A DNA stretch of 64,000 nucleotides from Thermoplasmata archaeon (GTDB taxonomy: Archaea > Thermoplasmatota > Thermoplasmata > Lutacidiplasmatales > UBA184): contig JBAUYF010000007.1 of NCBI GenBank assembly GCA_049584655.1, forward strand, positions 27,288 to 91,287, written 5' to 3'. Position numbers and translations under genes: made by a program. The notes under the pieces are model-generated. The model searched no databases, had not been told where the DNA came from, and saw only the letters and a program-made list of their open reading frames with translations. Below are positions 20,022-22,775 of the stretch, one piece after another. Positions within the stretch are counted from its first letter, which is position 1. Every line of letters begins with the position of its first letter.

Positions 20022-20738
20022 TCACGATTTTGACGGCGAACTCCGACGAAGACCATCCAGGTCGTGCTTCAACAGATCGAGCTCATGGACCGCCACATCG
20101 CTTTCACCTTCCGAAGCGAGCGGAGTGAGGGGAATGGCCGCCCGGGCCGGAGGGGGAGGAGGCGGCGGAGGAGGCAAGAACGAAGTCGCCGGGCCGGCCA
20201 CGGATGCCGCCTTCACGGAGACCCCCCGTACGCCCCCCGGGTCCAACCTTCGAGACTTCGAAGAAATCACCGCCGGAGTACGGGGAGGGGGTGACGGAAG
20301 TGTCCGTAGGGATCCCGCGGAGGTCGATTTTCTTGGCGGGGCCGTTGGAGTTTCCTCCGGTTCATCCTCCTCGGCGAAATAGGAAATGACTCCGCCAACA
20401 CCGGCCACGATTCCGAGCACCAAGAACAAGATCCACAGATGGAAACCGCCGGCACCCACCGTCGGCTCGAGCGACCAGGTGAGAAGGGCTCCGACCAGCA
20501 GGATCCAGGATGGGAAGAGCAGCGGGAAGCAGCCCCCGATGCGGCGGAAGAAATCATTCGGGGCGCGCCGTTCTGCTGGATCCGGTCGACCATGTACATC
20601 GGGAAGGGGCCGACCGGTAACGCGGGGGGCGGGCGGGTCCGGGGAGGACGCAGGCGTCAGGGCGTCTTCGTCCCAATCGGGGGCATACATGCTGTGGGGA
20701 GCCATCGGCGCAATCTGGAATAATTCGAGGAGGGCCAA
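20022..20738 (-). CDS. Hypothetical membrane protein with proline-rich (PPPPPPPPP) segment
   Basis: 238 aa. Two or three TM helices are followed by an acidic and Pro-rich cytoplasmic region. Confidence 0.5.
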   Translation of the reverse strand: MALLELFQIAPMAPHSMYAPDWDEDALTPASSPDPPAPRVTGRPLPDVHGRPDPAERRAPNDFFRRIGGCFPLLFPSWILLVGALLTWSLEPTVGAGGFHLWILFLVLGIVAGVGGVISYFAEEDEPEETPTAPPRKSTSAGSLRTLPSPPPRTPAVISSKSRRLDPGGVRGVSVKAASVAGPATSFLPPPPPPPPPARAAIPLTPLASEGESDVAVHELDLLKHDLDGLRRSSPSKS

Positions 20739-21122: not shown

Positions 21123-21488
21123 CTACCGCTTCGCGACGAGAAACAAGATCCCGCTGATCAAGAGGCAGAGGGAGGCCAGGATCGCAAGAACGCCGGACGC
21201 AAAACCTAACGCGAGCCATCCGACGACCGCCATTACCACGAGGATGATCCCGGCCGCCAAACTCTCGTCGCCCCATCGTGACCTTCCGAGAATCGCAAAA
21301 AATCCGGCGATAAGCCCGACGACAATGAAAACGATCGACTGATCCAGGGACGAGAACGACGCCCCCGCTCGATGAGTCGCGAGGAAAAAGGCGCCCTTGA
21401 AGAAGTCAAAGATGCCGTCTAAGACCAGTAAGGCAGCCCCCAGCAAGCCAAACAGCAATCCAAGCGGGCGGTCCGAGCGGTACGTCAC
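21123..21488 (-). CDS. Small hypothetical membrane protein
   Basis: 121 aa with 3-4 TM helices. Confidence 0.5.
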   Translation of the reverse strand: MTYRSDRPLGLLFGLLGAALLVLDGIFDFFKGAFFLATHRAGASFSSLDQSIVFIVVGLIAGFFAILGRSRWGDESLAAGIILVVMAVVGWLALGFASGVLAILASLCLLISGILFLVAKR

Positions 21489-21765
21489 AGTCCCTCCTCA
21501 GCTACCGCGTGCGCCTCCGGCTCGGGAGGATATAAACCGTTCACGCTCGGCCCCGACGGCATGTCGCATTCTAGCTCTCCGAATGACATTCGATCCGAGC
21601 GAGTTAGTGTCTAGCCCCGGAGCAAGGAAGCCTCCCCTTGCCCAAATCGGGAATCTCGACGAACAGTCGCGCCCGAATACGCAACTGTCGTGGCCCATCC
21701 GTCGTAGGAAAGGTCGGAAATCCGAGGGCAAGGTTTTTCATCTCGGCCCGGACTCCAAACGCCGC

Positions 21766-21872
21766 GGCCGGGATGGGGTAGCTTGGCCTATCCTGGGGGA
21801 CTGTGGATCCCTCGACCCGGGTTCAAAGAGAGGCGGGAACCACCCCACCTCTGGGAACTCTCGGTCCCGGCC
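21766..21872 (+). tRNA. tRNA-His (anticodon GUG) with genome-encoded G-1 and a ~31-nt insertion in the T-loop (putative non-canonical intron)
   Basis: The acceptor stem GCCGGGA/UCCCGGC is a perfect 7 bp. G-1 pairs with the C73 discriminator. U8, A14, G18G19, A21 and R26 are present. The anticodon arm is GGGGA-CUGUGGA-UCCCU (U33, GUG, G37). The T-stem 5' half CCGGG is followed by the canonical UUCAAA. The T-stem 3' half CUCGG sits 38 nt downstream with G53-C61 preserved. The inserted segment (~21828-21858) can form an AGAGG/CCUCU helix. Confidence 0.7.
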
Positions 21873-22775
21873 CTACCGCCGCCGCCCCGGCTTCTTCGCG
21901 CCCCTGCGGGACGATTTCTTACGGTTCGACGCCTTCGATGGACCGCGCTCAAGTTCGGCGAGTTTTTCGGGGAGCGCCGACAACGAGTAGTCCGCCCACG
22001 CGGCTCCCCAGCTTCGAAGATCTTCGGGGGTTAGTCCCCAACCGTGAAGCGACGATGCGCGCCCGATGGGAGTGACCCCTTCCACCGAAGCGGCAGCTTC
22101 CATATCGAATCGGGAGTCCCCGATCAAAAAGATCCGTGCGCCCGGATACCGCCGTCGGTACTCCTGGAGATGTTCCCGCTTCGTGCCTTGCGCCGAGCCC
22201 AAGACATCCTCGAACCAGAATCGCAATCCCTCGCGTTCGAGCAGCAAATCCGCCATCTCGGTTTCCGCTCCCGTCGAGATCACGAGGGTCCAGTGTTCTT
22301 GTGAGAGCCGTTTCAATAGCTTGGGCACCTCGGGGAACGGGCCCGCATGGGCATACGCTTCCGTTACCTTGCGGCCGTGGAACGTCCGGGCTGTGGCGGC
22401 TCGGAGCGTTGCCGGGGCATTTCCGTAGAGCTGGGACAGTTGAGCTTCGAATGGCATGCCGGTCGTGGCGAGGTAGTGAATGCGACCCTCTTCGATCGGA
22501 GTTCCAAAGGCGGTATGCATGACATCCGCGGCCACATGGCTGATGAGGGAGATATCGTCGAGAATCGTGCCATCCATGTCGAAGACGACGACTCCGCGTT
22601 CAACGTGAGTAGGAACAACTTCGCGCGGGAGGGTCGGGAGCCGGGAGATTTCGGAGAACTGGGAGGCGGCAGAGGAGACGATCGGGAGTTCGAGGCCTTC
22701 CAAGGGAGCGTCCGGAGGAGCGGGTTCCGGAGGTGGTGACGAGGAGTGAGAGGGCTTGCGGGCGCGCGGCTTCAT
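21873..22775 (-). CDS. HAD-superfamily hydrolase (phosphatase)
   Basis: Motif I VVFDMDGTI, motif II/III region, and a C-terminal Lys-rich tail. The true start is probably internal (near 22620-22640), because motif I normally lies close to the N-terminus. Confidence 0.75.
   Translation of the reverse strand: MKPRARKPSHSSSPPPEPAPPDAPLEGLELPIVSSAASQFSEISRLPTLPREVVPTHVERGVVVFDMDGTILDDISLISHVAADVMHTAFGTPIEEGRIHYLATTGMPFEAQLSQLYGNAPATLRAATARTFHGRKVTEAYAHAGPFPEVPKLLKRLSQEHWTLVISTGAETEMADLLLEREGLRFWFEDVLGSAQGTKREHLQEYRRRYPGARIFLIGDSRFDMEAAASVEGVTPIGRASSLHGWGLTPEDLRSWGAAWADYSLSALPEKLAELERGPSKASNRKKSSRRGAKKPGRRR

Follow-up and report, generated by a model that had tools for sequence, protein, structure and literature searches.

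A probable bulge-helix-bulge intron at T-loop position 59/60 of the tRNA-His gene in a clade of high-GC Thermoplasmata

Introduction

Bulge-helix-bulge (BHB) introns at non-canonical positions of tRNA genes are well known, and position 59/60, within the T-loop, is an uncommon but known site for them. For instance, 59/60 BHB introns have been documented in the tRNA-Cys and tRNA-Pro genes of ARMAN-2 (PMC3239211). The reference geometry is that of the canonical archaeal intron, in which a central 4-bp helix takes in loop nucleotides 1-4, the first two anticodon bases among them, and the 5' bulge is formed by the last two exon nucleotides and the first intron nucleotide (PMC4090602). According to reviews, strict BHB motifs are needed by the euryarchaeal alpha4 and homodimeric alpha'2 endonucleases (PMC4033280; PMC4090602), and the Thermoplasmatales are among the orders whose EndA carries a structural alpha' unit, that is, the alpha'2 type (PMC5829648). 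In line with such narrow-specificity endonucleases, a 2014 review recorded Euryarchaeota(-type) tRNA genes with introns at the canonical position only (PMC4090602). Our search of the literature for a T-loop or tRNA-His intron in Thermoplasmata or Thermoplasmatota found no description, although one may exist beyond the literature covered; the word "intron" does not occur in the paper describing the Lutacidiplasmatales (PMC9287336).

Here we describe a locus within a 64-kb stretch of archaeal DNA, the whole of which we refer to as the window. Comparison of its sequence with those of relatives leads us to read it, with a probability of roughly 0.9, as a functional tRNA-His gene bearing a spliced BHB intron at position 59/60.

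Anatomy of the gene

The gene runs from an encoded G-1 to the discriminator C73 and is interrupted once, inside the T-loop. Its parts are as follows:

21766-21872, + strand: tRNA-His(GUG) gene including G-1, from G-1 to C73 (direct reading of the sequence)
21766-21827, + strand: 5' exon, comprising G-1, acceptor 5' strand, D-arm, anticodon arm, variable region, T-stem 5' strand and T-loop nucleotides 54-59 (ARAGORN cloverleaf without the insert; invariant or nearly so in 63 aligned genes)
21766, + strand: encoded G-1
21767-21773, + strand: acceptor 5' strand, GCCGGGA
21774, + strand: U8, followed by G9
21780, + strand: A14
21785-21786, + strand: G18G19
21790, + strand: A21
21801-21807, + strand: anticodon loop, CUGUGGA, with the anticodon GUG at 21803-21805
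21817-21821, + strand: T-stem 5' strand, CCGGG
21822-21827, + strand: 5' part of the T-loop, UUCAAA
21828-21858, + strand: predicted 31-nt intron, GAGAGGCGGGAACCACCCCACCTCTGGGAAC, at tRNA position 59/60 (its deletion restores a canonical tRNA-His; same-site inserts in relatives)
21859-21872, + strand: 3' exon, comprising U60, T-stem 3' strand, acceptor 3' strand and C73 (sequence, ARAGORN without the insert, alignment)
21859, + strand: U60
21860-21864, + strand: T-stem 3' strand, CUCGG
21865-21871, + strand: acceptor 3' strand, UCCCGGC
21872, + strand: discriminator C73

The window sequence has CGAC between the anticodon arm and the T-stem 5' strand, and does not encode CCA after C73.

With the insert in place, ARAGORN at default settings called no tRNA in the whole window, and Rfam at its gathering threshold found none; at default thresholds, therefore, neither program detected any other tRNA gene in the 64 kb. 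ARAGORN's intron mode likewise found nothing in the window, and a relaxed run (-ps90, introns up to 60 nt) still missed the tRNA-His gene. A permissive Rfam scan of 21650-21990 (E up to 10) gave no partial tRNA match, only two chance matches, to a lncRNA and to a miRNA family. Elsewhere in the window the relaxed ARAGORN run made 13 low-quality calls, for example c[56040,56116] Gln and c[15632,15725] Gly, which we regard as spurious. Once 21828-21858 was deleted, ARAGORN returned a tRNA-His(gtg) of 76 nt with a 7-bp acceptor stem, a 5-bp T-stem, the T-loop UUCAAAU and G-1:C73. The G-1:C73 pair is invariant in all 63 aligned genes, and in the same 63 every position of the spliced model's T-stem and acceptor stem is paired. 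In the D-stem, ARAGORN's model of the insert-deleted sequence has three standard pairs and a U13xU22 mismatch, the latter common to 60 of 63 relatives in the alignment.

Much of this had been anticipated in a preliminary description, which placed a tRNA-His(GUG) gene with an encoded G-1:C73 at exactly 21766-21872, proposed an intron of about 31 nt at 59/60 and named ARAGORN as one means of checking it. The insert proves to be exactly 31 nt long and has same-site counterparts in at least 64 genomes. Each tRNA feature listed there—acceptor stem, U8, A14, G18G19, A21, CUGUGGA and T-arm—could be located, with the U13xU22 mismatch of the D-stem to be added. The warning that standard scanners miss or mis-model such genes was also well founded, both in the window and, as discussed below, in relatives.

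Distribution among relatives

One genome per species was scanned with a pattern that starts at the anticodon arm and stops at UUCRAA, short of the insert, and is thus blind to the intron. At least 119 loci were recovered, and inserts were called from the distance between the T-loop and the complementary T-stem and acceptor 3' strands. Among the matches listed, 64 genes have an insert of 21-40 nt at the identical site (32 nt being the commonest length) and 53 do not. At least 58 of the insert-bearing genomes are high-GC Thermoplasmata metagenome-assembled genomes (MAGs), including named Lutacidiplasmatales. Put the other way round, among the matches listed the insert is present in all 58 genes whose exons lie 0-5 nt from those of the window and which lack the anticodon-stem and T-stem changes of the Methanomassiliicoccales type; the loci of these 58 genes are 60-75% GC and are titled Thermoplasmata archaeon. 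Again among the matches listed, the intron was not found in Methanomassiliicoccales (5-6 differences), low-GC Thermoplasmata MAGs (8-9 differences), Methanomicrobiales, Thermococci or most DPANN matches. The presence of the intron tracks phylogeny. The closest relative among the matches listed (L021) has a 31-nt intron and shares 75% nucleotide identity with the window over 5.4 kb, and its HAD hydrolase, CoaBC, SucC and SucD proteins are 83-91% identical to those of the window.

Several loci outside this group deserve mention in their own right. Inserts of 21-40 nt at 59/60 also occur in L059 and L072 (52% GC) and in L071, L089 and L110 (39-55% GC, Thermoplasmatota or Thermoplasmatales MAGs), with 4-bp central helices, unrelated hairpin sequences and different tRNA-His exons; L044 has exons similar to those of L071, yet no insert. 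The distribution in these lower-GC lineages indicates one of two histories, an old intron later lost in some of them or gains at 59/60 on more than one occasion. The tRNA-His of a Candidatus Micrarchaeota MAG (L106, JAADIF010000030.1) has an apparent insert of 85 nt at 59/60. Finally, archaeal tRNA-His genes identical to the Methanomethylophilaceae type appear in gut bins labelled Firmicutes bacterium CAG:194 (L047), Bacteroides ovatus (L068) and Dialister hominis (L074), and an intron-bearing Thermoplasmata-type tRNA-His appears in "bacterium" DX1.bin10 (L052); all four look like mis-binned or contaminating archaeal contigs.

Conservation, promoter box and neighbourhood

Across the 58 high-GC genomes the exons have a mean pairwise identity of 97.7% and fall into 12 distinct mature sequences, with 33 genomes sharing the mature sequence of the window; variation is confined to the segment from position 9 through the D-loop, except for one T-stem change from G.U to G-C. 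The introns of the same genomes average 65% pairwise identity, and all 58 are distinct.

Upstream of the gene lies a further conserved element, and the neighbouring genes are as follows:

21728-21741, + strand: BRE/TATA-type box, gcAAGGTTTTTCat (-37 to -26 from G-1; conserved in 63 loci)
21123-21488, - strand: small membrane-protein ORF neighbouring the tRNA-His gene (ORF list)
21873-22775, - strand: HAD-family hydrolase gene, convergent with the tRNA-His gene (ORF list; Pfam Hydrolase, HAD and HAD_2 for the identical gene in L001)

The consensus of the box over 63 loci is gcAAACCTTTTCtt, in flanks that are otherwise unrelated and 60-75% GC; the AT fraction reaches 0.83-1.00 at -37, -36, -32 to -29 and -27. 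From its position, composition and conservation, the box is probably the BRE/TATA promoter of the lineage. A weaker conserved signal lies near -13 and at -10 and -9.

Downstream, the stop codon TAG of the HAD gene (21873-21875) directly abuts C73. In 40 of the 64 intron-bearing loci the tRNA gene likewise meets a convergent ORF tail to tail with zero spacing, a "CTA" trailer marking the end of an ORF at least 150 codons long. The transcripts of such abutting convergent genes must, as a result, either overlap or end within one another. CoaBC and SucCD follow beyond the HAD gene, and among the matches listed the order tRNA-His, HAD, CoaBC, SucCD is found in 56 intron-bearing loci and in no intron-less locus. 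Farther away in the window, the minus-strand ORF at 20022-20738 (238 aa) contains 10 prolines in a row together with predicted membrane segments; at the equivalent position L001 has a 227-aa gene with no Pfam match.

These patterns bear on the pseudogene scenario, which the preliminary description had itself raised: a tRNA-His broken by a T-loop insertion, with histidine decoded by an intact gene elsewhere. In its favour, standard scanners are silent at the locus, and the search of the host's own genome for tRNAs covered 64 kb. Against it, exons 97.7% identical across 58 species stand amid unrelated flanks, a promoter-like box is conserved at a fixed distance, and the 58 inserts all differ, yet keep their hairpin and their pairing with the exon through compensatory change. 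Furthermore, there is a single tRNA-His locus per genome among the matches listed, including a 2.18-Mb record titled "chromosome: 1" (L069, OY970259.1). With exons, promoter box and splice motif all retained in 58 related species, we consider a pseudogene very unlikely; the locus is probably the sole tRNA-His(GUG) gene of its host, whose own genome was seen over 64 kb.

A splice motif in the T-arm

The T-arm and the insert together can adopt an arrangement equivalent to that of a canonical intron. The T-stem (49-53/61-65) provides the outer helix, U54-A57 pair with intron positions -3 to -6 as the central helix, the bulges are A58 A59|i1 and i-2 i-1|U60, and the intron hairpin is the inner helix. 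In the window the elements are:

21822-21825, + strand: central BHB helix H, exon strand U54 U55 C56 A57 (pairs with 21853-21856)
21853-21856, + strand: central BHB helix H, intron strand GGGA (64-gene tally and pair counts on the alignment)
21826-21828, + strand: 5' splice-site bulge, A58 A59 / G(i1), with the predicted cut between 21827 and 21828 (geometry rule of PMC4090602)
21857-21859, + strand: 3' splice-site bulge, A C / U60, with the predicted cut between 21858 and 21859 (A-N|U in 61 of 64 genes)
21829-21852, + strand: intron hairpin h', AGAGG/CCUCU, a CxA mismatch, GGG/CCC and the loop AACCAC (the window's own fold and RNAalifold on the alignment)

Cleavage at these sites would give the spliced-exon junction ...CGACCCGGGTTCAAA|TCTCGGTCCCGG... 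and the circular-intron junction ...CTCTGGGAAC|GAGAGGCGGG..., and the predicted spliced T-loop, UUCAAAU, is the T-loop of 44 of 53 intron-less homologues.

The central helix of the window consists of U-A, U.G and C-G with an A.G mismatch at A57, that is, three standard pairs. Pairing at its four positions in 63 relatives is as follows:

U54: paired in 63/63 (50 U.G, 13 U-A)
U55: paired in 63/63 (56 U-A, 7 U.G)
C56: paired in 63/63 (all C-G)
A57: paired in 43/63 (A-U), mismatched in 20/63

The unpaired A57 cases comprise 17 A.G, 2 A.A and 1 A.C in the 64-gene tally, which includes one duplicate sequence. A.G at A57 is thus the commonest deviation in the central helix, and it is the one seen in the window. 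The bulges read AA|N in 64 of 64 genes and A-N|U in 61 of 64. A strict hBHBh' motif is present in 43 of the 63 relatives; judged by its sequence, the window itself has a near-canonical hBHBh' with one non-Watson-Crick position in the central helix, rather than a strictly canonical one. In essence, position 59/60 of a 7-nt T-loop is the structural twin of position 37/38 in the anticodon loop.

We decided the helix register on comparative data and not on minimum free energy. Folded as a single sequence, the RNA prefers a GGGUUC/GAACUC helix with a misfolded D-arm (-54.3 kcal/mol, against -39.6 kcal/mol for the BHB cloverleaf), and this preference of the energy model for a non-BHB fold of the isolated RNA counts against our reading; single-sequence energies cannot settle the register, however, because the model penalises the two bulges. 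The GUUC/GAAC register chosen by the energy model is not conserved, since the majority of introns end in GAGAC and would leave a C56xA mismatch, and read as a BHB it would yield a defective spliced T-arm 3 nt too short. The switches from U.G to U-A at positions 54 and 55 fit only the pairing of U54-A57 with intron -3 to -6. Two proposals of the preliminary description are therefore to be amended. Of the two helices that it drew, AGAGG/CCUCU stands as part of the intron hairpin, in which 9 of 10 pairs covary, and GUUC/GAAC falls with its register; the motif is of BHB type, as it suggested, but "relaxed" does not describe a near-canonical hBHBh' that is strict in 43 of 63 relatives.

To quantify the pairing, we imposed the cloverleaf and hBHBh' structure on the 63-sequence alignment and counted pairs. 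Standard pairs fill 93.5% of cells; sliding the 3' partners by 1-3 columns lowers this to 27-68%. Double-sided changes occur at 13 pairs; the observed values on five measures were reached on none of them by any of 500 shuffles. For the intron hairpin the paired fraction is 89%, and 9 of its 10 pairs have changed on both sides in a compensatory manner. Without an imposed structure, RNAalifold closed the acceptor stem and T-stem across the insert and predicted the intron hairpin; it did not predict the short central helix from the alignment, as expected because its energy model penalises the two bulges. Same-site inserts, near-invariant exons and compensatory change together amount to far more than chance.

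The same pairing weighs on the idea that the 31 nt are never removed, and that the mature tRNA carries an expanded T-loop or an extra arm. The insert does form a stable hairpin, but a T-loop could not survive the conserved pairing of its U54, U55 and C56 with the insert. On both strands the junction lies exactly 2 nt beyond the four-position helix, as a splice motif demands, and removal of the insert gives the T-loop UUCAAAU of relatives. To our knowledge, no functional cytoplasmic tRNA has a T-loop of about 38 nt. Retention is accordingly a most improbable alternative to splicing.

Consequences for annotation

ARAGORN calls a tRNA-His in all 53 intron-less loci and gives some tRNA-His call in 27 intron-bearing ones. 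The Rfam tRNA model, which scores 48.9 bits on the intron-less homologues L005 and L028, has no match in the four intron-bearing relatives examined. The three ARAGORN calls inspected by coordinates or drawing (L085, L073) are 91 nt long, against a true gene of about 108 nt; in the model at 4013-4103 of L085, the intron hairpin is taken for the T-arm and the real T-stem 5' strand for a long variable arm. That this 91-nt tRNA-His is the correct one seems to us barely conceivable, even with ARAGORN calls in 27 intron-bearing relatives to speak for it. In L085, the one model inspected, the acceptor stem has two mismatches and a G.U, and the "T-loop" lacks the TPsiC consensus. The model also leaves the invariant downstream CUCGG-UCCCGGC-C unexplained and is not produced by ARAGORN for the window itself, whereas the 7-bp acceptor stem and 5-bp T-stem of the spliced model pair fully in 63 of 63 genes. 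The 91-nt model is an artefact, and public annotations built with ARAGORN may hold it.

In practical terms, annotation based on ARAGORN or Rfam will report tRNA-His as missing from these archaea, or supply a false 91-nt model. Either outcome affects how complete the genomes of a widespread soil lineage are judged to be, and what is inferred about its codon usage. tRNAscan-SE 2.0 looks for non-canonical introns by default in its archaeal mode (PMC8450103). According to the Lutacidiplasmatales paper, tRNAscan-SE 2.0.5 found tRNAs for all 20 amino acids in the type genome (PMC9287336); that software therefore probably recognises the tRNA-His gene already.

Host and source

The host, to judge from the sequence, is probably an uncultured high-GC Thermoplasmata archaeon in, or close to, the Lutacidiplasmatales. 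The HAD, CoaBC, SucC and SucD proteins of the window are 64-81% identical to those of four MAGs (AcS5-58, SubAcS10-22, AcS13-54 and SubAcS15-120) that share its intron and synteny. The available text of PMC9287336 lists AcS5-58, SubAcS10-22 and SubAcS15-120 among the MAGs of the Lutacidiplasmatales (= TMEG / GTDB UBA184); AcS13-54 is placed there by the isolate-name scheme only. The window is about 62% GC, against about 69% given for the Lutacidiplasmatales in that paper.

The SucD protein of the window also occurs in three further assemblies and on the 338-kb MAG contig JBAUXN010000013.1 (GCA_049584295.1). Over 12.9 kb this contig matches the window at 99.9% identity; it has an identical tRNA locus and therefore represents the same species assembled independently; it encodes Topo VI A and B subunits, which makes the host archaeal. 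Although the source is a metagenome-assembled genome, a chimeric insertion introduced by assembly or binning can be set aside, given this independent copy and homologous inserts in 63 other assemblies from many studies (among the matches listed).

A model for maturation

Starting from the observed anatomy, motif, conservation, covariation, promoter box and synteny, we infer transcription, the RNase P step, EndA cleavage, RtcB ligation and CCA addition from what is known of archaeal tRNA splicing (PMC4090602, PMC3239211, PMC5829648). The conserved promoter would drive synthesis of a pre-tRNA with the 31-nt intron between T-loop nucleotides 59 and 60. In this precursor the T-stem, 49-53/61-65, would act as the outer helix and nucleotides 54-57 would pair with the 3' part of the intron as the central helix, while the rest of the intron would fold into a GC-rich hairpin, placing both junctions in 3-nt bulges on opposite strands, that is, in a bulge-helix-bulge. 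EndA would cut within both bulges; joining of the exons, and probably closure of the intron into a circle, would fall to an RtcB-type ligase. The spliced product would carry UUCAAAU, a normal T-loop. Processing by RNase P would spare the encoded G-1, and CCA would be added post-transcriptionally.

The near-strict motif is consistent with the strict-BHB requirement of the euryarchaeal endonucleases, although the A57.G in the window's central helix counts against our reading when set beside the needs of alpha4 and alpha'2 enzymes; the A.G variant may call for an enzyme of broader specificity. No EndA or RtcB gene is present in the window or in the loci of relatives examined. When M. jannaschii EndA, its sequence confirmed against PDB 1A79, served as tblastn query, the window and all loci yielded chance matches only, and a database search with the catalytic domain of A. 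fulgidus EndA gave 48 matches, none linkable to the clade.

It is also conceivable, if rather unlikely, that selection, and not mere tolerance, has kept the intron in a gene that is probably the sole tRNA-His of this order-level clade of Thermoplasmata. One possible role would be to break up the segment from the T-arm to the 3' end that mobile-element integrases use as an attachment site; another would be a maturation checkpoint, with T-loop folding delayed until splicing. Were selection at work, a "strict" alpha'2-type endonuclease would routinely cut a T-arm BHB even with an A.G mismatch, and the textbook link between endonuclease type and intron position would be contradicted.

Comparison with known systems

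The interest of the locus lies in clade-wide fixation combined with a practical annotation problem. A non-canonical-position intron is fixed in at least 58 Thermoplasmata species with a motif near the strict form, which fits the idea that intron position is free provided that the BHB is strict. The 58 distinct natural introns are, moreover, a ready covariation data set for the BHB motif, and they illustrate a tolerated deviation, the A.G mismatch at the fourth position of the central helix.

Against the intron-less tRNA-His of Methanomassiliicoccales and other Thermoplasmata, the mature sequence is 5-9 nt apart; these share the T-loop UUCAAAU, G-1 and C73, and the insert is absent from them. 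Like the canonical 37/38 intron with its hBHBh' motif, the predicted intron has a 5-bp stem as outer helix and a 7-nt loop whose nucleotides 1-4 enter a four-position central helix, with the cut after loop nucleotide 6 and the intron hairpin as inner helix (PMC4090602). Unlike the canonical intron it lies in the T-arm instead of the anticodon arm, and ARAGORN -i and the Rfam tRNA model therefore miss the intron-bearing gene.

The 59/60 introns of ARMAN-2 are like it in insertion point, in short length, in the exon-intron pairing that makes the BHB and in the canonical T-arm restored by removal. The differences are equally clear. The isoacceptor here is His and the host a high-GC soil Thermoplasmata; the motif is a strict or near-strict hBHBh', whereas that of the ARMAN-2 tRNA-Cys is a relaxed hBH; and while the ARMAN-2 introns are part of a genome-wide burst of tRNA disruption, the intron described here is fixed across at least 58 species.
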